From positions 80,657 through 144,656 of the forward strand of contig CAZAKN010000001.1 in NCBI GenBank assembly GCA_964486065.1: 64,000 nucleotides of DNA. Direction: 5' to 3'. The notes under the pieces were generated by a model. The model was given only the letters and a program-made list of their open reading frames with translations, was not told where the DNA came from and did not search any database. This document shows, one piece after another, positions 4,734 through 63,571 of the stretch. A program made the position numbers and the translations under genes. Position 1 is the first letter of the stretch, and each line of letters opens with the position of its first letter. Source of the stretch: an uncultured Gammaproteobacteria bacterium (GTDB lineage: Bacteria; Patescibacteriota; Patescibacteriia; UBA11705; JABHMO01).

Positions 4734-6317
4734 TTAAACAAGCGGTCTGCCACTCATTTCGTCCGGTGGCTCAATTCCCATTAATTTCAGAATAGTGGGA
4801 GCAATATCACTTAAAACTCCCACCGGTTGCAACAAACTTAAATCCACTCCGCTCTCCGTATTATTTAAAATATTTTTTCCTTCCAATTCACGATCAATCA
4901 CAATGCAAGGAACCGGATTGGTGCTATGTTCTTTGTCTCTTTCTCCGGTTTGCAGATTCAACAATTCTTCAGCGTTGCCATGATCAGCGGTAATAACCGC
5001 CTTCCCTCCTTTAGACAAAAGAAGTTCCACCACTTCGCCAACACATTGATCAATATATTCAATGGCTGTCACCGTTTCTTTTATTTCTCCAGTATGACCG
5101 ACCATATCAGGATTGGCGAAATTCACTACCACGAAATCATGTTTTTCACGATTTAATTCTTGAATCAATTTATCGGTTACCGATCGCGCGGACATAAGCG
5201 GTTGCTCTGAATAGGAAGCCACCTTGGGCGAAGGTACCACTATTCTATCCTCTCCTTCAAAAGCGTCTTCCGTGCCTCCACTGAAAAAAAATGTAACATG
5301 TGCGTATTTTTCAGTTTCCGCGATATGTAATTGCCTGAAACCCTTTTCACTAAGCACTCTGGGCAAAGATGTTTTAATAGTCTCTTTCTGATAAGCGACC
5401 TTGACGGGTAAACCTTCTTCGTATTGCGTCATGGTTACAAATAATAAATTATCAATTTTCTTTCCACGATCAAATTTATCAAACTCCTCATCTAAAAAAG
5501 TATGCGTTAATTGCCGAGCACGATCCGCACGATAATTAAAAAAGATGACCGCGTCATTATCACCCACAACCGCTCTCGGCGAACCTTCTTTGCCGATTAC
5601 AACAGGGATAAATTCTTCATCATAAACTTTTTCTTCATACGATTTTTCAATAGCTTTTACGGGATCCTTATAATATTCTTCACTTTCGCCGTCAGTCAAA
5701 ACCTTCCATGTTTTCTCAACTCTGTCCCAACGATTATCACGATCCATGGCGTAATAACGACCATGCAAAGAAGCGATTTTGCCGACTCCGATTTTTTTAA
5801 TCTCTTTTTGTAAATCTTCAATAAAGCCTTTGCCACTATTGTAAGGTGAATCACGACCGTCCAAAAAAGCATGCACAAAAACATCTTTCACCTTATTGCG
5901 TTTAGCCAAATCCAAAAGCGCGTAACAATGCGAATTCATGGCATGAACCTTTCCTTCACTCACCAATCCCACCAAATGCAATTTGGAGTTATGCTTTTTA
6001 ACATGATCAAACGCTTCCAAAAACGCCGCGTTTTCAAAAAAACCGCCACCATCAATATCCTTATCAATGCGTGGCAAATTTTGATAAAAAATCTTACCCA
6101 CGCCGAGATTCAAATGTCCAACTTCCGAATTCCCCATTTCCCCCCAAGACAAACCAACGGCTTCTCCCGAAGCCAACAAAGTCATGGCCGGATAGCTTTC
6201 AATGTATTTATTGATGTTCGAAGTTTTGGCCAGTGAGACACCATTCCCTTCAGAATGTGGCGCCACTCCCCAACCATCAAGAATTATTAGCATTACTGGT
6301 TTTCTGTTGTCAGACAT
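4734..6317 (-). CDS. gpmI: 2,3-bisphosphoglycerate-independent phosphoglycerate mutase (copy 1)
   Basis: 527 aa; N-terminal LIILDGWG, metal-binding alkaline-phosphatase-superfamily core, C-terminal ADHGN. Confidence 0.85.
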   Translation of the reverse strand: MSDNRKPVMLIILDGWGVAPHSEGNGVSLAKTSNINKYIESYPAMTLLASGEAVGLSWGEMGNSEVGHLNLGVGKIFYQNLPRIDKDIDGGGFFENAAFLEAFDHVKKHNSKLHLVGLVSEGKVHAMNSHCYALLDLAKRNKVKDVFVHAFLDGRDSPYNSGKGFIEDLQKEIKKIGVGKIASLHGRYYAMDRDNRWDRVEKTWKVLTDGESEEYYKDPVKAIEKSYEEKVYDEEFIPVVIGKEGSPRAVVGDNDAVIFFNYRADRARQLTHTFLDEEFDKFDRGKKIDNLLFVTMTQYEEGLPVKVAYQKETIKTSLPRVLSEKGFRQLHIAETEKYAHVTFFFSGGTEDAFEGEDRIVVPSPKVASYSEQPLMSARSVTDKLIQELNREKHDFVVVNFANPDMVGHTGEIKETVTAIEYIDQCVGEVVELLLSKGGKAVITADHGNAEELLNLQTGERDKEHSTNPVPCIVIDRELEGKNILNNTESGVDLSLLQPVGVLSDIAPTILKLMGIEPPDEMSGRPLV

Positions 6318-6366: not shown

Positions 6367-7923
6367 TTATTTTATAAGCGAACCTGAAATACCTTTGGGA
6401 ATTTTTTTGATATTAAACATTTGATAAATTGTCGGAGCAATATTGGTTAAATCCCCTTTTTTAAATAATTTGACTCCCTTTTTGTCATCACTTACCAAGA
6501 TCAAAGGAACGGGATTGGTCGTATGCCAAGTCCAAACTTCATCGGTTTTCAAGTCAAGCATTTTTTCCGCGTTACCATGATCAGCCGTGACGATCAGTTC
6601 ACCTTTATTTTTCAAAACAGCTTTACTTACCTCGCCCAAACATTTATCAGTATGCTCAATCGCTTTAATCGTGGCGGGCAAATTCCCCGTATGCCCCACC
6701 ATGTCGGGATTGGCGAAATTAATGGTAATGAAATCATATTTTTTTTGTTCAATATATTTCACGACCTGTTTAGCTATTTTATAAACACTCATTTCAGGTT
6801 TCAAATCATAACTTTTAACTTTCGGCGATGGAATCATTTGCCACTTTTCATGATCGCGTGTCTCCTTGTAACCACCATTGAAAAAATATGTGACATGCGC
6901 GTATTTTTCCGTTTCCGCTATATATAATGAATTAACATTTTCCAAAATTTTTGGCACTGATTGTTCCACCTGCGCTCCGGGGAAAGCTGCTTGCATGCCG
7001 TCAAGATCCGGTCCAAAGTCGGTTAAGGCGGTAAAAGTTAGATTTTTTATAACTTTGTTTCTTTTAAAAGAATTCTTATTTCTGCGATTGAAATCTTTTT
7101 GCGCAAAGGTTTTGGCTATTTGTCTCGCCCTATCTGATCTTAAGTTGAAAAATATGACCGAATCATTGTCATTAATTCTGCTTTTGGCGACATGCTTCCC
7201 ATCGGAGCAAATCGTGGCAGGTTCAATAAACTCATCGGTTATGCCTTTGTTGTATGAATGCAAAACCGCTTGTTTGAGATTTTTAAAATTACGACACTTG
7301 CCGGCGGTCAGGCAATCATAGGCTTTTTGCGTGCGTTGCCAATTTTTAACACGATCCATGGCGTAAAACCTTCCCATCACAGTTACGATTTTGGCTTTTC
7401 CTTTAACCTTTTTTTCCACTTCATCAAGCACTTCAATTGAAGCATATTGCGGAGAGTCACGACCATCGGTGATAAAATGCAGAAAAATATTTTTAACTTT
7501 ATATTTGGCCGCCATGTTCACCAAGGCATACATATGCTGTTTATCCGAATGAGGACTGCCGTTCTTGCTAAGCAATCCGAAAATATGTAAATTAGCAGCG
7601 TTTTGCTCGGCATGCTTGATAGAATCAATTAAAATATTATTTTTTTCAAAACGACCGTTTCTGATAGATTCGGAAATAATCACCGAATCTTGTTTAACCG
7701 GAAAACCGGCGCCGATATTCATATGTCCGGCTTCGGAATTTCCAACTTGATTTTTCGGCAATCCCACTTGCGAACCATGCGCCACCAACTTGGTATGCGA
7801 ATACTTCTCCCACAATTTTTCATAATTAGGCTTAACCGCTTGTTCAATAGCATTTCCTTTCGTTTTGGGAGCCAATCCCCAACCATCAAGAATCAGCAAT
7901 ACGATTGTTTTATTTGTTTTCAT
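6367..7923 (-). CDS. gpmI: 2,3-bisphosphoglycerate-independent phosphoglycerate mutase paralog (copy 2)
   Basis: 518 aa; same signature blocks (LLILDGWG, ANPDMVGHTG, TADHGNAE) as neighbouring copy but clearly diverged sequence. Confidence 0.8.
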   Translation of the reverse strand: MKTNKTIVLLILDGWGLAPKTKGNAIEQAVKPNYEKLWEKYSHTKLVAHGSQVGLPKNQVGNSEAGHMNIGAGFPVKQDSVIISESIRNGRFEKNNILIDSIKHAEQNAANLHIFGLLSKNGSPHSDKQHMYALVNMAAKYKVKNIFLHFITDGRDSPQYASIEVLDEVEKKVKGKAKIVTVMGRFYAMDRVKNWQRTQKAYDCLTAGKCRNFKNLKQAVLHSYNKGITDEFIEPATICSDGKHVAKSRINDNDSVIFFNLRSDRARQIAKTFAQKDFNRRNKNSFKRNKVIKNLTFTALTDFGPDLDGMQAAFPGAQVEQSVPKILENVNSLYIAETEKYAHVTYFFNGGYKETRDHEKWQMIPSPKVKSYDLKPEMSVYKIAKQVVKYIEQKKYDFITINFANPDMVGHTGNLPATIKAIEHTDKCLGEVSKAVLKNKGELIVTADHGNAEKMLDLKTDEVWTWHTTNPVPLILVSDDKKGVKLFKKGDLTNIAPTIYQMFNIKKIPKGISGSLIK

Positions 7924-17071: not shown

Positions 17072-18031
17072 TTAGTTAGTTAAAGCTTTTTTCATATTTG
17101 CAGCGATTCTTTGAATAACCGGAATTGAAACAGAATTACCAAATTGTTTGTACAGATGAGAATCTGCAATGTTAGGGAGTTTATAATTCTTTGGAAAACC
17201 TTGGAAATTACCACATTCTCTTGGCGTTAACTTTCTAATTCCTTTTCCGTTTAAAACCAAAGGAACATTATGACCACCCATTCCCATATTTGCCGTTAAA
17301 GTAGGACAAACCTTATTTTTATTCTCTCTAACATATTTTCTTCGCCATTGATAAACAGTGTCTCGTTTTTTGACTTCCTTTTGCAATTCTTGATAAAGCG
17401 GTTTGTCATTGTAATAATATTTATCATCAACTTCATTTTCTTCTAAGCAATCATGAATTGTTTTTGTTAATTTAATCTTTTCTGGAAAAGAAAATTTGTC
17501 ATGAGCTTTTTTGTCTGAAAATCCAACAATATATATTCTCTCTCTATTTTGTGGAAGATTCCCATATTCCATTGTATTTAAAACTTTTACTTTAACAAAA
17601 AAACCAAGTTCTTTTTCTAATTTTTCAATAATAATTTTCATTGTGTTTCCTTTGTCATGTGTTTTGAGGTTTTTTACATTTTCAAGAAGAAAAGCCTTTG
17701 GCTTTTTAGCTTTTAAAATTCGTACAATATCAAAAAACAAATTCCCTCTGTTTTTCTCATCATTAAACCCTTGTTTATATCCCGCAATAGAAAAAGGTTG
17801 ACATGGAAAACCACCACACAAAACATCAAAATCAGGAATTTTTGAAGTCGGTATTTTTTGAATATCGCCAAGTACCATTTGTTTTTCGGTTTCAAATATT
17901 TCAACAAAATTAAAATCAAATGTTGTTTTTGCATTTTCATCAAAATCATTGGAAAACACACATTGAAACCCGGCGTTTTCAAAACCAATTTTTATTCCAC
18001 CTATACCGGCAAATAGATCTATGAATTTCAT
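17072..18031 (-). CDS. DNA (cytosine-5)-methyltransferase
   Basis: 319 aa with canonical m5C-MTase motifs: I (DLFAGIGG), IV (GGFPCQPFS), VI (ENV), VIII (QNRER), X (QFGNSV). Confidence 0.9.
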   Translation of the reverse strand: MKFIDLFAGIGGIKIGFENAGFQCVFSNDFDENAKTTFDFNFVEIFETEKQMVLGDIQKIPTSKIPDFDVLCGGFPCQPFSIAGYKQGFNDEKNRGNLFFDIVRILKAKKPKAFLLENVKNLKTHDKGNTMKIIIEKLEKELGFFVKVKVLNTMEYGNLPQNRERIYIVGFSDKKAHDKFSFPEKIKLTKTIHDCLEENEVDDKYYYNDKPLYQELQKEVKKRDTVYQWRRKYVRENKNKVCPTLTANMGMGGHNVPLVLNGKGIRKLTPRECGNFQGFPKNYKLPNIADSHLYKQFGNSVSIPVIQRIAANMKKALTN

Positions 18032-22932: not shown

Positions 22933-24051
22933 TTATGATAATTCTTCACGAATCCGACGCATCATGGTTAGATAAAATTCCAAGTTGTTCAAAGTGGCCA
23001 AACGCTGAGCCAGACTGTCTTCGGTTACGAACAAATGTCGCAAATACGCTTTTGAATAATTTCTTAATTCGGAAAACTCACTCTCCGCGTTTATCGGCGA
23101 TGTGTCAAATTTGAATTTTTCCGCCTTGGCGTTGGCGGTTTGGTAAAATCCCTTGCCCGCATCCAAAATTCCGTTTTTGATTTTGCTGAAATTATATAAT
23201 CTTCCATGTCTGGCTTCGCGAGCCGGAATCACGCAATCAAACATATCCACGCCTCGCTTTACCGCTTCCACGATTTGATGAGGATACCCCACTCCCATTA
23301 AATATCTCGGTTTATTTTCCGGCAAAGCCGGTACCGTATAGTCCAGAACTTGATACATTTCCCGCTCACTTTCTCCCACGGACAAACCGCCGATAGCGTA
23401 ACCGTCAAATCCAATCTTTTGCAATTGTTCAGCGCTTTGCAACCGCAAATCTTGTTCCAAGCCTCCTTGAACAATGGCGAAAAGCAATGGTTTTTTCTTC
23501 TCATTTTTACAATACTTTTGGCATGCCTTTTTACTTTGCTCCGCCCATTCCGTTGTTAAAGCGATTGATTTTCGCAAATAGTTCCGTTTCGCGGGGATTT
23601 CCACGCATTCATCCAACACCATCATAATATCCGAGCCAATCGCCGTTTGAATACGGATGGAATCAGCCGGAGTCATATTAAATTTTCGTCCGTCAATATG
23701 CGAATTGAATTCTATGCCCGTGGCGGATATTTTCCTGATACGAGCCAAGGAAAAAACTTGAAATCCGCCACTATCGGTCAAGATCGGTTTTCGCCAACCC
23801 ATGAATTCATGCATACCTCCCAATTTTTTAATTTCCTTTTCGCCGGGACGCAACATTAGATGATAAGTATTGCCGAGGATAACTTCGGGCGCCAATTTCT
23901 CCAATTCAGTCACGGCAATCGTTTTCAAGCTGGCCTTGGTGGCTACGGGCATAAAAGTAGGAGTTTGAACAATCCCGCGACGGGTTTTTAATTCGCCTCT
24001 ACGAGCCTTATTTTTACGATTTAAGAGTTTATACATAAGGAAATGAAGCAT
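22933..24051 (-). CDS. tgt: Queuine tRNA-ribosyltransferase
   Basis: 372 aa; TGT family motifs (VQTPTFMPV, DSGGFQ, zinc-binding C-terminal region). Confidence 0.85.
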   Translation of the reverse strand: MLHFLMYKLLNRKNKARRGELKTRRGIVQTPTFMPVATKASLKTIAVTELEKLAPEVILGNTYHLMLRPGEKEIKKLGGMHEFMGWRKPILTDSGGFQVFSLARIRKISATGIEFNSHIDGRKFNMTPADSIRIQTAIGSDIMMVLDECVEIPAKRNYLRKSIALTTEWAEQSKKACQKYCKNEKKKPLLFAIVQGGLEQDLRLQSAEQLQKIGFDGYAIGGLSVGESEREMYQVLDYTVPALPENKPRYLMGVGYPHQIVEAVKRGVDMFDCVIPAREARHGRLYNFSKIKNGILDAGKGFYQTANAKAEKFKFDTSPINAESEFSELRNYSKAYLRHLFVTEDSLAQRLATLNNLEFYLTMMRRIREELS

Positions 24052-24359
24052 TATATTGTTAAATGAATTTTAGCTTAAATCAAAGCAAAAAGCAAAGGCC
24101 GCTTCTTGTGAGAAGCGGCTTTGATTTAAACGGCCATGGCCATTTCGGATTGATGCCATATCTGCTTTTTTTCGCAGGATACGGCGGGATTGTTCGCGCA
24201 GGGAAATTCGCCCGTAAAAGCGAATTTCAATCTGCAATTACGACATTCCGAGGGACGCGAAGATAGTTCGCTTTTTTCGCGTTCCCTTATTTGCAATAAC
24301 AACTCTAATCTTGACATGGGAACCCCCTTTTGCGAAATGGTTATTCAATTTATGATTGA

Positions 24360-24713: not shown

Positions 24714-24745
24714 AAGAAAATGATTATTCGCCTACCGGCGGGGCT

Positions 24746-24973
24746 TTATTTGGAGGCGTTAAACGCTACTCTATCTTTATACTCGGCTTTTTTACCGTTG
24801 TTCCAACGGTTCACCGGAGAAAGATATCCCACCACGCGAGAATAGATTTCGCACTTTTGGCGTTTTAATTCTTGAGCTGACATAAGATTAATATTAATTT
24901 GAATATTTAATCTGTAGTTTTTAATTTGACAATGTGGCGCTTTGGGCGCAAAGGAATATAGGGAAGAAAACAA
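24746..24973 (-). pseudogene. Remnant/standalone ORF resembling the C-terminal glycyl-radical motif region of anaerobic ribonucleotide reductase NrdD
   Basis: ORF ends ...YSRVVGYLSPVNRWNNGKKAEYKDRV..., matching the NrdD C-terminus (RVCGYLGSP...NAGKQEEVKRRV) from memory; preceding Zn-ribbon Cys pairs absent; no upstream NrdD body. Confidence 0.4.
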
Positions 24974-25691
24974 GCCCTAAAGTCACAGGCTAAGTGCCGG
25001 GGAACATTCAGCCGGCGACAGCATATTACCTTTGCGCCCTTTTTCGCAATAAAAAAATATTAAGTGCACCACAACCTAATATTCACATATAAAATGCAGA
25101 CTCCGAGGAGAATACTGAAAACTTACCGTCTTGCTTTGAGTTTGGCGAATTGTCAGCTGAATGTCGGGGAACAATCAGACGGCAATTCCGCGTTTATTAC
25201 TTCGTCTAAGACTGAAACTTGCAATATTCTCATCCGCAAATCAAATCATCTGCATTTTACATTTAAATATTAAAAATATCCTTGCCAGGGCGTAAAGAAT
25301 AAGCGGTAATTTCGTGCTGTTTGAATTTACCAAGATTGACAGCCTCAGCCGTCAATAAAGTATAAAATCCAACAGACTTATAAAATGAAAAAACCTTTTC
25401 TCCACACCCTGACCGCAAATCACACACAGCGAGATTAACTTGTAAGAGAGACAAGCATGATTCCCTTACAGCTTCTCCGCCTTACGATTAATCTCAATGT
25501 TTGGCCAAGGCGCATAAACAATATACTCCGATTTCTATGCTTTTGCTTTGCCATGATCGGCAGTAAAAAACCGCTAATCTAGTACGAAGTAAAAACACAT
25601 GAGAGAAAACCGGTACCGCTCACACGCCCTGAACGCAAATCACATTTTTTAAAGTACTCTTGCCGTAAACAGATATTCAATTGATTATTGA

Positions 25692-26627
25692 CTAAATTAT
25701 TTCCGCCACTCGCAGTTTGGCCGACCGTGCTCGTGGATTTTCGGAAATTTCTTCTTCACTGGCCGTTATCGCTTTTTTAGTGACTCTTTTCAGACTTGCC
25801 CGATGATCACAGCGACATTCAGGGATTTCTTTGGGACAGATACAATCTTTACTTTGTTGTTTGAAATATTGCTTAACGATCCTATCTTCCAAGGAGTGAA
25901 ACGAAATAATCGCTATTCTACCTCCCTGAATTATTACTTGCTCAGCTTGTCGTAAAACGCTTTTCACATTTGCCAATTCGTCATTTACTTCTATTCTCAA
26001 AGCTTGAAATGTTTTAGTGGCAGGATGAATCTTACTTTTTCCCTTTAAAACAACACTTTCAATTAACTCGGTTAAATCCTTAGTGGTAACGAAAGGTTTT
26101 TCTTTTCTCCGACCGACAATCGCTTGAGCTATTTTTCGCGCTCGTGGCTCTTCACCATATTCTCGCAATATTTTTATTAAATCCTTTTCCGAATAATTAT
26201 TTAAAATATGTTCCGCCGTCAGCCCGTTCAGATCCGGCGAAAATCTCATGTCTAACGGTTCAACCATCTGAAAACTAAATCCCCTGCCCCTTCTCGCGAG
26301 CTGATCTGAAGAAAGCCCCAAATCAAGTACAATGCCGTTAATTTGTAAATTTTCTTCAACATATTTATTTAATATTTGTTTTAAATTGGTGTATGAATCA
26401 TGAACCGGAATAAATCTGGTTCCATAATTTGTTAAGAATTCACGGGCTTCGCCCAAAGCTTCTTTGTCCCAATCAATACCGATTAATTTGCCCTTCGGAC
26501 CGGTCTTTTCCAAGATCGCCTTGGCGTGACCGCCCGCACCCAGCGTGCCATCTATATAATTTTGATTGGCGCCGGGATTTAAATATTGGATTACTTCACT
26601 TGTCATTACCGATTTATGAATTGACAC
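25692..26627 (-). CDS. rsmH: 16S rRNA (cytosine1402-N4)-methyltransferase RsmH (MraW)
   Basis: 311 aa; SAM-binding DGTLGAGGH motif; follows mraZ. Confidence 0.9.
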   Translation of the reverse strand: MSIHKSVMTSEVIQYLNPGANQNYIDGTLGAGGHAKAILEKTGPKGKLIGIDWDKEALGEAREFLTNYGTRFIPVHDSYTNLKQILNKYVEENLQINGIVLDLGLSSDQLARRGRGFSFQMVEPLDMRFSPDLNGLTAEHILNNYSEKDLIKILREYGEEPRARKIAQAIVGRRKEKPFVTTKDLTELIESVVLKGKSKIHPATKTFQALRIEVNDELANVKSVLRQAEQVIIQGGRIAIISFHSLEDRIVKQYFKQQSKDCICPKEIPECRCDHRASLKRVTKKAITASEEEISENPRARSAKLRVAEII

Positions 26628-26709: not shown

Positions 26710-27141
26710 TTAAATTCCCAGTTCTCCCAAATGTTCGGCGATTTCATTGCTTTGCTTTTCAGTATCTTTCTTGTATTTTTCCCATTTTACTTCATCCCAG
26801 ATTTCCAATCTATCATACAAACCGGCAATAACCGCTTTTTTTCCTATTTCCGCGAATTTGCGTAAATATTCGGGAATCATTATTCTACCTTGTTTATCAA
26901 GTTGAACATCCATAGCTCCGGCTAACATCAATCTGGCAAAAGCTCTGGTATTGGCTTGACTGAAAGGAAGTTCAGAAAGTTTTTCAGCCAATTTTTCCCA
27001 TTCCTTTTTCGTGTAAATAAATAAAGAATTGTCCAAACCGCGCGTAACCACCGCTCCCCTTGCCAAAGCCAAGCGAAATTTGACCGGCACGGCCAGTCTT
27101 CCTTTCGCGTCCAAGGAATGATTGTATTCTCCTATAAACAT
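26710..27141 (-). CDS. mraZ: Transcriptional regulator MraZ
   Basis: 143 aa; duplicated MraZ half-domains with DxxxR motifs (LDAKGRL / LDKQGRI). Confidence 0.85.
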   Translation of the reverse strand: MFIGEYNHSLDAKGRLAVPVKFRLALARGAVVTRGLDNSLFIYTKKEWEKLAEKLSELPFSQANTRAFARLMLAGAMDVQLDKQGRIMIPEYLRKFAEIGKKAVIAGLYDRLEIWDEVKWEKYKKDTEKQSNEIAEHLGELGI

Positions 27142-57072: not shown

Positions 57073-57149
57073 ATAGACAATTATAGCTTAGCCAAACAAA
57101 TAAAAAAACCCCGTCACAATGAAGTGACGAGGCTTGGCGATGTGGGCGA

Positions 57150-57590
57150 TCAGTATGGCGCGGAAAAGGCTACGCTTTGATTAAAAGCCTTTTCGCGCTT
57201 CACCATGCACTCATACTTGCCATCGGCGTATGAGCGTTCCACCGCGATGCAGTCGGTTCTCTGCATCTTCGGTAGATCCACGCAAACCGTGGGGATCGGA
57301 CCGAAAAGCCCGTTCCTCATTTCTTCGGCGCTGTACCCCAAGGCGGTGAATTTGGATTTCACCTGCTCCTTGAGACAACAGGGGCAGTTGAAAAAGACAT
57401 TCAACTGCTCGCCGGTGCGCGGGTTTTCCACGCGACAGGTCAAGTTGTCGCCGTCATGCTCCAACTTGAGCACCATGCCTTCTTTGGCGAAGGCGGCCTT
57501 GGCTTCCACCAAGGCTCCCTTGGCGTCGGTTTTGCAGCCGGCGACCAAAACGGAAAAAACAAGTAACAGCGGGGAAAAAACCTTGTGCAT
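57150..57590 (-). CDS. Cys-rich lipoprotein (GC-rich islet)
   Basis: Start set at MHKVFSPLLLVFSVLVAGC (signal peptide + lipobox); 8 further Cys incl. CPCC; local GC far above window background. Confidence 0.5.
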   Translation of the reverse strand: MHKVFSPLLLVFSVLVAGCKTDAKGALVEAKAAFAKEGMVLKLEHDGDNLTCRVENPRTGEQLNVFFNCPCCLKEQVKSKFTALGYSAEEMRNGLFGPIPTVCVDLPKMQRTDCIAVERSYADGKYECMVKREKAFNQSVAFSAPY

Positions 57591-57751
57591 GTAGCACCTC
57601 CTTGAAATGAGTTGAAGGAACTGAACTTTTATAAAAAAAATCATCAAAAGATGATTACGCCAACTTACCCAAAAAATATGATTTTGTCAAGTCTTATAAA
57701 GCAAAAATTCCGAAGCTTATTCGGAATTTTTGCTTATTTTAAACAAATTTA

Positions 57752-63053: not shown

Positions 63054-63223
63054 ATATTTTACAAAATTATATTTTACTCAAAAAATTATGACTATCCGCC
63101 TTTTATTCAGACTCACTTAGCCATATTTTTATAAATTATAGCATTTTTTCCGCCAAAAACGAAGTATTTATCCACTAAATAAAAAAGCGTTTCGTTATAG
63201 TAACGAAACGCTTCATTTAACAA

Positions 63224-63571
63224 TCAGTGGACATGCTCCAAAATTACTTGGAACTCATAATCGTCAACCTCTCGGTAATAACAGAAAGATTGGCGCCAAA
63301 GCCCCACCAAATAATCTCCCACCAACGCGTTCAAACGCATTTGGGGGATCCATTTGTTGTCAATCAACAAATGCACCGCCGTGGGACATGCCTCATCGCC
63401 CACGGGATCGTGGCTGATGCTGATGATCTCCACGCCTTGAACAAGCAGGAATTTCTTCATGTTGAAGAAAAGAATCAAGGCGACATTGTAAGCCGTTTCC
63501 GACTTAAAGTTCCGCCTCAGCATCTCCTGCTCCGCAGGATCCAACTCCCTAATGAACGCTTCTTCCATCAT
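63224..63571 (-). CDS. Hypothetical cytoplasmic protein (GC-rich islet), translationally coupled to upstream lipoprotein gene
   Basis: Start set at MMEEAF preceded by AGGAGG-7nt; ORF-track N-terminal extension overlaps upstream gene. Confidence 0.45.
   Translation of the reverse strand: MMEEAFIRELDPAEQEMLRRNFKSETAYNVALILFFNMKKFLLVQGVEIISISHDPVGDEACPTAVHLLIDNKWIPQMRLNALVGDYLVGLWRQSFCYYREVDDYEFQVILEHVH

Follow-up and report, generated by a model that had tools for sequence, protein, structure and literature searches.

What fills the 978 nt that separate rsmH from ftsL in the mraZ operon of this Patescibacteria contig (CAZAKN010000001.1)? The interval occupies positions 24714-25691 of the window, by which we mean the whole 64,000-nt stretch of DNA analyzed here, and a preliminary description, made from the sequence alone, took it for a non-coding island that splits the division and cell wall (dcw) gene cluster and carries internal repeats and a structured-RNA-like module on the plus strand. 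The gap itself was confirmed, and no other of the 15 intergenic gaps in the window that measure 150 nt or more is as large. The premise that rsmH is normally placed directly before ftsL holds, since L130 and L131, the loci with the closest rsmH relatives (58% identity), show this order with a gap of 1-84 nt. A frameshift or an assembly error, named there as what might undo the finding, is unlikely, because two independently assembled Logan contigs (runs SRR7048224 and SRR7048223) match the window over the island with 100% identity. The label “non-coding” fits only in part: 24746-24883 on the minus strand is a conserved 45-codon gene for a stand-alone glycyl-radical domain of the NrdD type, here called mini-nrdD, whereas the 808 nt between this gene and rsmH gave no protein-family match. 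We read the interval as mini-nrdD plus a lineage-specific, structured 808-nt spacer that acts in cis in the operon mRNA, and we give this composite reading about an even chance of being right.

The mini-nrdD gene begins with the ATG at 24883-24881 (minus strand), which is aligned to the start of its family, and encodes a product of 45 aa, MSAQELKRQKCEIYSRVVGYLSPVNRWNNGKKAEYKDRVAFNASK. This product matched the very end of the Pfam NRDD profile (PF13597; profile positions 530-562 of 562, 40.4 bits with a cut-off of 26.2, E = 2e-10) and of NCBIfam NrdD (TIGR02487; positions 549-579 of 581, E = 1.8e-9; under the whole-protein cut-off, as a fragment should be), as well as the NrdD-like phrog_487 in PHROGs (E = 3e-5). 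Mini-NrdD covers approximately the last 35 residues of NrdD, including the glycyl-radical loop RVVGY, so that the radical-glycine motif R-[VI]-x-G-Y near the C-terminus is present. In the family-profile alignment it corresponds to the C-terminal ~30 residues of T. maritima NrdD (616-646, entry 4coi), and RVVGY falls on Y-M-R-I-V-G-Y (616-622, radical-glycine motif RIVGY). No match to Pfam Gly_radical, the C-terminus of pyruvate formate-lyase, was found in mini-NrdD, NRDD being the only family reported at E ≤ 1. A database search yielded 35 stand-alone homologues of 41-67 aa and 63-82% identity from Patescibacteria, including Falkowbacteria, and across 33 family members 16 positions are invariant, C11, E12, Y14, R16, V17, V18, G19, Y20, P23, W27, N28, G30, K31, E34 and R38 among them. 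Furthermore, a profile search of 1.84 billion cluster representatives gave 2497 matches at E ≤ 1e-10, and the best 150 of those matches (50%-identity cluster representatives) were all small proteins of 45-149 aa. Judged from this conservation at the sequence level, 24746-24883(-) is a real conserved small gene that the preliminary description missed. This corrects an error at the level of annotation, where an apparently empty gap conceals a conserved micro-gene below the standard length thresholds for open reading frames (ORFs).

The relatives of mini-nrdD explain what kind of protein it encodes. In L001-L007 the gene order is (nrdR-)nrdD-mini-nrdG, and the 687-aa NrdD ends in ...CPVHGY...CPRCDEEMGY... 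without RVVGY; in the fused NrdDs of other lineages, the mini sequence comes directly after the same CPxC. Because a truncated nrdD lies beside the mini gene and the fused NrdDs continue into the mini sequence, we identify the mini gene as the glycyl-radical loop of a class III ribonucleotide reductase (RNR) that is split into separate genes. Among the best 80 loci from species-representative genomes, 27 have a fused NrdD and ~42 a split nrdD, the latter comprising 33 loci with nrdD-mini-nrdG and 9 with nrdD-nrdG-mini (Halanaerobiales). Three further loci have short (<100-aa) stand-alone frames with neither nrdD nor nrdG in the locus, 6 have stand-alone frames of 118-205 aa, and 2 are unclassified. 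In the literature searched, where only the split class II NrdJa/b is discussed, no paper describing a split class III RNR turned up, nor any that treats free-standing NrdD radical loops as a family. Going by this family, Patescibacteria, Halanaerobiales and DPANN archaea very often have a class III RNR made of two chains.

Three observations on the surveyed loci stand beside this. First, the split layout recurs in L001-L007, L009-L018 and many others (e.g., L001:3811-6153) as a ~690-aa NrdD that ends after a zinc-ribbon-like CPxH...CPxC motif, together with a 41-67-aa ORF bearing RVVGY; Patescibacteria and DPANN archaea have the order nrdD-mini-nrdG, whereas Halanaerobiales have nrdD-nrdG-mini. 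Second, the 118-205-aa frames come from Desulfobacterales/Thermodesulfobacteriota (L040, L048, L050, L056, L063 and L082, with the match at ~5001-5110 in most). They have a different stand-alone architecture, a Cys-rich N-terminal part (…KC..C…) fused to the NrdD-type radical loop, and their loci, which reach as far as 5 kb to either side if the contig is long enough, contain neither nrdD nor nrdG. Third, some nrdD genes are unusually long, with ~1 kb extra: the frames in L029, L053 and L055 have 1027-1061 aa, and the matches in L017, L024, L042, L046 and L058 span ~3 kb. Their length suggests inteins or other insertions, which would make nrdD an interruption hotspot in these lineages.

The copy in the window adjoins none of these partners. 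Its position in the operon is nevertheless shared by other genomes, as L092-L094 have the order mraZ-rsmH-(7 nt)-mini-(43 nt)-ftsL-tgt and the Falkowbacteria loci L008 and L127-L129 have mraZ-rsmH-(93 nt)-mini-(159 nt)-ftsL...tgt. From this synteny, the mini gene is a regular resident between rsmH and ftsL in one Patescibacteria subclade. In L130 and L131 ftsL comes directly after rsmH without a mini gene, which, going by gene order, is the ancestral state. One Falkowbacteria genome may carry both kinds of copy: P0109 (the rsmH product of L127) and P0011 (a mini protein of an nrd operon) are both listed with a longest contig of 520,868 nt, and this shared figure suggests a single genome, in which the nrd-operon and dcw copies would be 71% identical. 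In addition, a mini-nrdD copy lies beside Peptidase_M23/CHAP in L088:3205-8138 and another beside SpoIID in L090:4001-5802, with no nrd gene among the called genes of either locus. From these two loci, the association of free mini-nrdD genes with envelope or division genes is not confined to the dcw cluster. By analogy with GrcA/YfiD and pyruvate formate-lyase, the dcw mini-NrdD would presumably act in trans, supplying or replacing the loop that bears the radical in an NrdD encoded elsewhere.

The extra DNA of the window with respect to these relatives is the 808-nt spacer; the same position holds 7 nt in L092 and 93 nt in L008 and L127. We assessed structure across the window by a minimum free energy (MFE) scan regressed on GC content and by per-gap shuffles over the 15 gaps, of which the spacer and its neighbor at 24052-24359 were the most structured. 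The whole spacer folded at -257.2 kcal/mol on the minus strand (z = -8.2, 46 G·U pairs) and at -195.2 kcal/mol on the plus strand (z = -3.7, 15 G·U pairs). Both the MFE and the centroid fold consist of five consecutive hairpins, named D, E, C, B and A in their 5’ to 3’ order on the minus strand (Table 1). The minus strand also folded better for every module tested (A-D): hairpin D at -50.4 kcal/mol (z = -4.95) versus -24.7 kcal/mol (z = -0.43) on plus, hairpin C at -49.6 kcal/mol (z = -6.3, or -7.2 with flanks) versus -31.1 kcal/mol (z = -3.4), hairpin B at -56.5 kcal/mol (z = -3.5) versus -45.4 kcal/mol (z = -2.6) and module A at -44.2 kcal/mol (z = -6.1) versus -39.6 kcal/mol (z = -3.8). The stems of A-D contain 34 G·U pairs versus 5 A·C appositions (binomial p = 2e-6). 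Hairpins B, C and D are paired along nearly their whole length as long imperfect palindromes, and the outer arms of B form an inverted repeat of 24 nt that is 88% complementary and flanked by TA. Structure prediction on both strands, which the preliminary description had proposed, thus bore out the structure but not the plus strand. The same is true of its 11-bp long-range stem (24944-24954 with 25029-25039), which is 11/11 complementary and followed by a T5 run on plus, but belongs to a module that folds better on minus.

The hairpins are related to one another. The two direct repeats reported earlier were recovered, the first as 22 nt with 91% identity (25403-25424 and 25623-25644) and the second as 28 nt with 82% identity (24989-25016 and 25156-25183); their consensus patterns occur only at these sites in the 64 kb and gave 0 matches in 100 shuffles. 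The first is the core of a larger direct repeat of ~141-149 nt, in which C and D (25284-25424 versus 25504-25644) are 64% identical with a period of 220 nt. The consensus structure of C and D has 28 pairs, all of which are paired in both copies and none broken; five of them are changed on both sides, four consecutively in one helix. When the partners were slid by 1-3 columns as a control, only 39-49% of the cells paired. The part common to A and B is limited to the 28-nt apical stem-loop with an invariant UGUUCCCCG, which occurs within the window only in these two modules; the apex of B is a stem-loop with a CCCC loop paralogous to that of A, and where the two differ, G·U/G-C and U·G/U-A exchanges preserve the pairing on minus. 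Meanwhile, UGAUUUGCGG/U stands immediately 5’ of a stem in each of B, C and D, and the exact 10-mer is found nowhere else in the window. This paralogy points to growth of the spacer by local tandem duplication.

Table 1 Features of the mraZ-tgt region, in 5’ to 3’ order on the minus strand (window coordinates)
Feature	Position	Strand	Basis
mraZ, first gene of the operon	26710-27141	-	Pfam MraZ, E = 2e-41
rsmH, 16S rRNA m4C1402 methyltransferase, upstream operon gene	25692-26627	-	Pfam Methyltransf_5, E = 7e-113
rsmH-to-mini spacer, 808 nt, non-coding, nearly all folded into D, E, C, B, A	24884-25691	-	
Conserved single-stranded 5’ motif UGUGAUUUGCGU, directly before hairpin D	25633-25644	-	
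Hairpin D, ~130-nt extended irregular hairpin, 15 G·U pairs, paralogue of C	25503-25634	-	
Hairpin E, ~68 nt, between D and C	25430-25497	-	Inverted repeat; in MFE and centroid
Conserved 5’ motif UGUGAUUUGCGG, directly before hairpin C	25413-25424	-	
Hairpin C, ~130-nt extended hairpin, paralogue of D	25284-25413	-	
Hairpin B, ~196 nt, 24-bp outer stem, internal UGAUUUGCGG at 25234-25243	25077-25272	-	
Module A, three-way junction closed by a perfect 11-bp stem; one arm is the 28-nt stem-loop GCCGGCUGAAUGUUCCCCGGCACUUAGC common to B	24944-25039	-	
mini-nrdD, 45-aa stand-alone NrdD glycyl-radical domain	24746-24883	-	Pfam NRDD, NCBIfam, homologues, synteny
mini-nrdD-to-ftsL spacer, 32 nt	24714-24745	-	
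ftsL-like gene, 117 aa	24360-24713	-	NCBIfam FtsL_Actino, E = 1e-6; weak Pfam DivIC/FtsL_2
ftsL-to-tgt spacer, second strongly structured one, 308 nt	24052-24359	-	z = -5.8 to -7.1
tgt	22933-24051	-	

On the minus strand of the spacer, a consensus scan detected neither promoter-like nor terminator-like sites. Going downstream from rsmH on that strand, the first terminator-like hairpin that is not within a coding region lies beyond ftsL, at 24119-24098 (GCCGCTTCTCACAAGAAGCGGC with a T-rich tail after it). For these reasons, the spacer is most likely transcribed within the mraZ-rsmH-mini-ftsL mRNA. The only promoter candidate for the mini gene, TTGTCA-17-TAAATA at 24932-24904, is weak and below the threshold of the scan. 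In a single mraZ-rsmH-spacer-mini-ftsL transcript, the hairpins would act in cis as long double-stranded segments. Their near-continuous helices of 16-24 bp make them plausible RNase III substrates or stability or insulation elements, as has been demonstrated for the Correia elements of Neisseria (PMC2649163), and as processing sites or elements of this kind they could uncouple the expression of mini-nrdD and ftsL from that of mraZ and rsmH. We infer that the spacer is most likely an intercistronic part of the mraZ operon transcript, a structured RNA that is specific to this lineage and acts in cis. The suggestion of an unannotated structured RNA in the preliminary description accordingly survives as to the structure and its compensatory changes, but the strand is minus instead of plus, the extent is ~800 nt with five hairpins instead of one 105-nt junction, and the RNA most likely belongs to the operon mRNA instead of a separate locus.

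Several points weigh against this reading. Processing or stability in cis is the default interpretation of such structures, which here offer no specific feature in its favor. The promoter and terminator scans were crude and tuned to the sigma-70 consensus, which may not suit this phylum. The G·U excess could be due partly to a transcription-associated C>T bias on the sense strand instead of selection, and the compensatory changes between C and D are modest evidence, as they come from two sequences and the structure was derived from the same two. Since the searches made found no relative of the spacer, the comparison is one of internal paralogues, without cross-species covariation. As for the mini protein, its partner is missing from the neighborhood: tblastn detected no large nrdD, nrdG or nrdR in the 64-kb window, whereas in relatives nrdD and nrdG lie next to it.

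How far the spacer extends beyond this lineage was addressed by several searches. Rfam 15 gave no match for 24714-25691 on either strand at E ≤ 10, and none at the gathering threshold, so that the covariance-model scan suggested in the preliminary description came back empty. There are no tRNA or tmRNA genes in the island; none of the ten island ORFs of at least 30 aa outside the mini-gene frame matched Pfam, and the nine of them that were compared with PHROGs had no match there either. Neither the phage nor the plasmid collections matched the spacer by blastn, and scans of IMG/VR and JGI metagenomes for the core motifs gave isolated matches at chance level without flanking similarity. Run on the window plus 56 loci (~0.5 Mb), a covariance model built on C and D recovered these two hairpins and nothing else, and no similarity was detected between the spacer and its 93-nt (L008/L127) or 7-nt (L092) counterparts. 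Patterns and sensitive blastn found no further copies in the 64-kb window, which is the portion of the genome examined for copies (recorded contigs with this rsmH reach at most 232 kb); GCCGKCTGAWTGTTCCCCGRCAYTYAGC and TGTGATTTGCGKTCAGGGYGTG are candidate query strings for further ones. On these sequence comparisons, the spacer is seen so far in this lineage only. Other candidates were tried and rejected. A decayed nrdD, nrdG or nrdR in the island was sought by tblastn with the relatives’ proteins (E ≤ 10), which returned only the mini gene and a chance-level nrdG fragment (E = 4.8). Diversity-generating retroelement (DGR), retron, intron, attC and replication-origin (oriC) readings were dropped, as no reverse transcriptase or integrase is present among the window ORFs scanned and Rfam reported no intron; moreover, cumulative GC skew keeps the same direction across the region, and neither A-specific repeat differences nor R’/R’’ core sites are visible when the sequence is read by eye.

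The alternative that survives best, although we regard it as unlikely, is that the units are selfish or neutral palindromic repeats, either of the miniature inverted-repeat transposable element (MITE), ERIC or Correia (CREE) type or produced by local duplication and palindrome formation, with any effect on the genes incidental. The palindromic shape of each unit, the near-perfect 24-nt terminal arms of B next to TA and the absence of the spacer from relatives, which points to a recent gain, would all fit such elements, and the Correia elements of Neisseria likewise form hairpins in transcripts and interact with RNase III (PMC2649163). However, the other 63 kb of the window contain no further copy, none emerged from the core-pattern searches of the viral and JGI metagenome collections, and the copies are tandem and old (64% identity) instead of dispersed and similar. 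The strong strand asymmetry is also not expected of neutrally decaying DNA palindromes, though mutation bias could contribute to it. The decayed mobile or phage insertion envisaged in the preliminary description finds no trace in the blastn, Pfam, PHROGs, nrd tblastn and copy searches described above.

A tandem array of genes for trans-acting small RNAs (sRNAs), in which the C-rich apical loops UGUUCCCCG or UGAUUUGCGG would serve as seeds or protein-binding sites, is distinctly unlikely. Tandemly duplicated sRNA genes and C-rich seed loops do occur in other bacteria, e.g., RsaE/RoxS, and the conservation among the paralogues is concentrated in short single-stranded or loop motifs, as such an array would predict. 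Yet no unit is preceded by a promoter-like site or followed by a terminator-like site on minus, the units abut with almost no spacing, and none matches Rfam.

With comparably little confidence we consider a reading that assigns a joint role to both parts of the interval: the dcw mini-NrdD would be a GrcA-like second or spare radical domain that ties the supply of deoxynucleotides (dNTPs) to division, and the spacer a new cis-regulatory or processing RNA. If this is true, co-expression of mini-NrdD with mraZ, rsmH and ftsL would couple dNTP supply and division in bacteria with reduced genomes, and the spacer would set the levels of the mini protein and FtsL independently of mraZ and rsmH, or would answer to oxygen damage or nucleotide status.

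Very improbable, in our judgment, is a riboswitch-like leader, module A or the whole spacer, that senses a ligand or signal and controls mini-nrdD and ftsL. The start of mini-nrdD lies ~60 nt downstream of module A, a compact three-way junction with a z-score of -6.1, and the 3’ strand of the closing stem of this module can pair alternatively with a downstream GCGC, both of which would suit a switch. Against it, Rfam gave no riboswitch match at E ≤ 10, no homologue was found upstream of the relatives’ mini-nrdD (the L008 and L092 spacers are short and unstructured, and the covariance-model search was negative), and there is no terminator or Shine-Dalgarno sequence to sequester. No NrdR-box-like site was found in the island either; this test is weak, because the consensus used had no match even upstream of nrdD in L001.

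The version of the preliminary description, a ~105-nt plus-strand non-coding RNA (24944-25039) with an intrinsic terminator or a phage or mobile remnant, is scarcely credible: the T5 run after the 11-bp stem and a plus-strand fold better than shuffles (z = -3.8) speak for it, but the minus strand folds better in every tested module and overall, all neighboring genes are on minus, the terminator scan is silent at the site, where the loop is 74 nt instead of the 3-8 nt of the definition, and no phage, plasmid, PHROGs or Pfam match supports a remnant.

We return to a mini-nrdD gene with a structured spacer that probably acts in cis, and to the surroundings of the two. Beyond tgt follow a Band-7 gene, ftsI/PBP and a Mur ligase gene, and all genes around the locus are on the minus strand. 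The RsmH protein of the locus is 100% identical to P0036 in public assemblies; the next-best match has 58% identity, and since the best non-identical RsmH is this distant, the lineage is poorly sampled. No record was found for the exact FtsL of the locus, and the ftsL-like ORF has a tblastn match to the ORF at the same position in L008. Both Logan contigs that carry this rsmH stop inside the interval, L125 at window position 24740 (6 nt past the stop of the mini gene, in the 32-nt spacer before ftsL) and L126 at 24960 (in module A), possible reasons being heterogeneity among strains or a problem with coverage or repeats at this site. The ftsL-tgt spacer (24052-24359) is 308 nt long versus 97 nt in L092, is structured on both strands, and as strongly as the island, closes with the terminator-like hairpin at 24119-24098 and has no Rfam match above threshold. 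Upstream of mraZ, at ~27270-27205 (minus), a TTGACA-17-TATGAT promoter-like site is followed by four to five GTGG(G/T) repeats, which we take to resemble the MraZ-binding repeat arrangement of other bacteria. MraZ boxes were considered for the island as well and rejected, as it has no such array.

Elsewhere in the window, 57100-57650 is GC-rich (~0.55 versus a background of ~0.38), shows, on each strand, the strongest folding energy of the window after correction for GC content and overlaps a 165-aa TTG “ORF” (57150-57647, minus) without a Pfam match; Rfam gave no match there at E ≤ 0.3 and ARAGORN no tmRNA, and the segment may be an unrecognized structured RNA. The intergenic or poorly coding segment 63050-63550 folds much better on minus (e.g., 63151-63350, -72.6 versus -51.8 kcal/mol) and has sub-threshold Rfam matches only. 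Two tandem paralogues of cofactor-independent phosphoglycerate mutase lie at 4734-6317 and 6367-7923, and a gene for a C-5 cytosine DNA methylase (17072-18031) lies directly downstream of the Mur ligase gene.

Of the two parts of the interval, the mini-NrdD family with its dcw copy is the more testable and more general lead, in comparison with the hairpin array. Some genomes apparently keep an extra mini-nrdD in the cell-division cluster and, if so, they would provide a direct parallel to the “spare part” idea developed for GrcA. The spacer indicates, in the one lineage sampled, that a type of genome usually deemed streamlined can gain ~0.8 kb of strand-specifically structured RNA in an essential operon.

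Comparison with known systems places both parts. The spacer resembles the large structured RNAs and riboswitches of Rfam in its high predicted structure, its several helical domains and the three-way junction of module A, but it matches no family at E ≤ 10 and has no phylogenetic conservation from which a family could be defined. ERIC and REP/BIME of enterobacteria are transcribed intergenic palindromic repeats. With these and with Correia/CREE the spacer units share the form of 100-200-nt imperfect palindromes between operon genes that give mRNA hairpins and potential RNase III substrates or stability elements; in contrast, the known elements are dispersed and multicopy with a recognizable consensus, whereas the spacer units are tandem, divergent, confined to a single locus and paired in a strand-specific manner. 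For the mini gene, the closest systems include split RNRs such as the class II NrdJa/NrdJb of Pseudomonas aeruginosa (cited in PMC9669993), in which a catalytic chain is likewise distributed over two genes, the second of which encodes a functional module from the C-terminus; mini-NrdD differs in belonging to class III, in that the detached part is the ~45-aa radical loop itself, and in that the window copy adjoins no nrd gene. Finally, GrcA/YfiD, the autonomous “spare part” glycyl-radical cofactor of pyruvate formate-lyase, is like mini-NrdD a small stand-alone radical loop encoded apart from the catalytic subunit, and the probable presence of a second mini copy in the dcw cluster beside the nrd-operon copy in at least one Falkowbacteria species adds to the likeness. 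Mini-NrdD is, however, homologous to the C-terminus of NrdD and not of PflB, has 45 aa versus ~127 aa, and in most genomes appears to be the sole radical domain, that is, part of an obligate split and not a spare. Mini-NrdD thus falls outside the GrcA family, although its mode of action may be similar.

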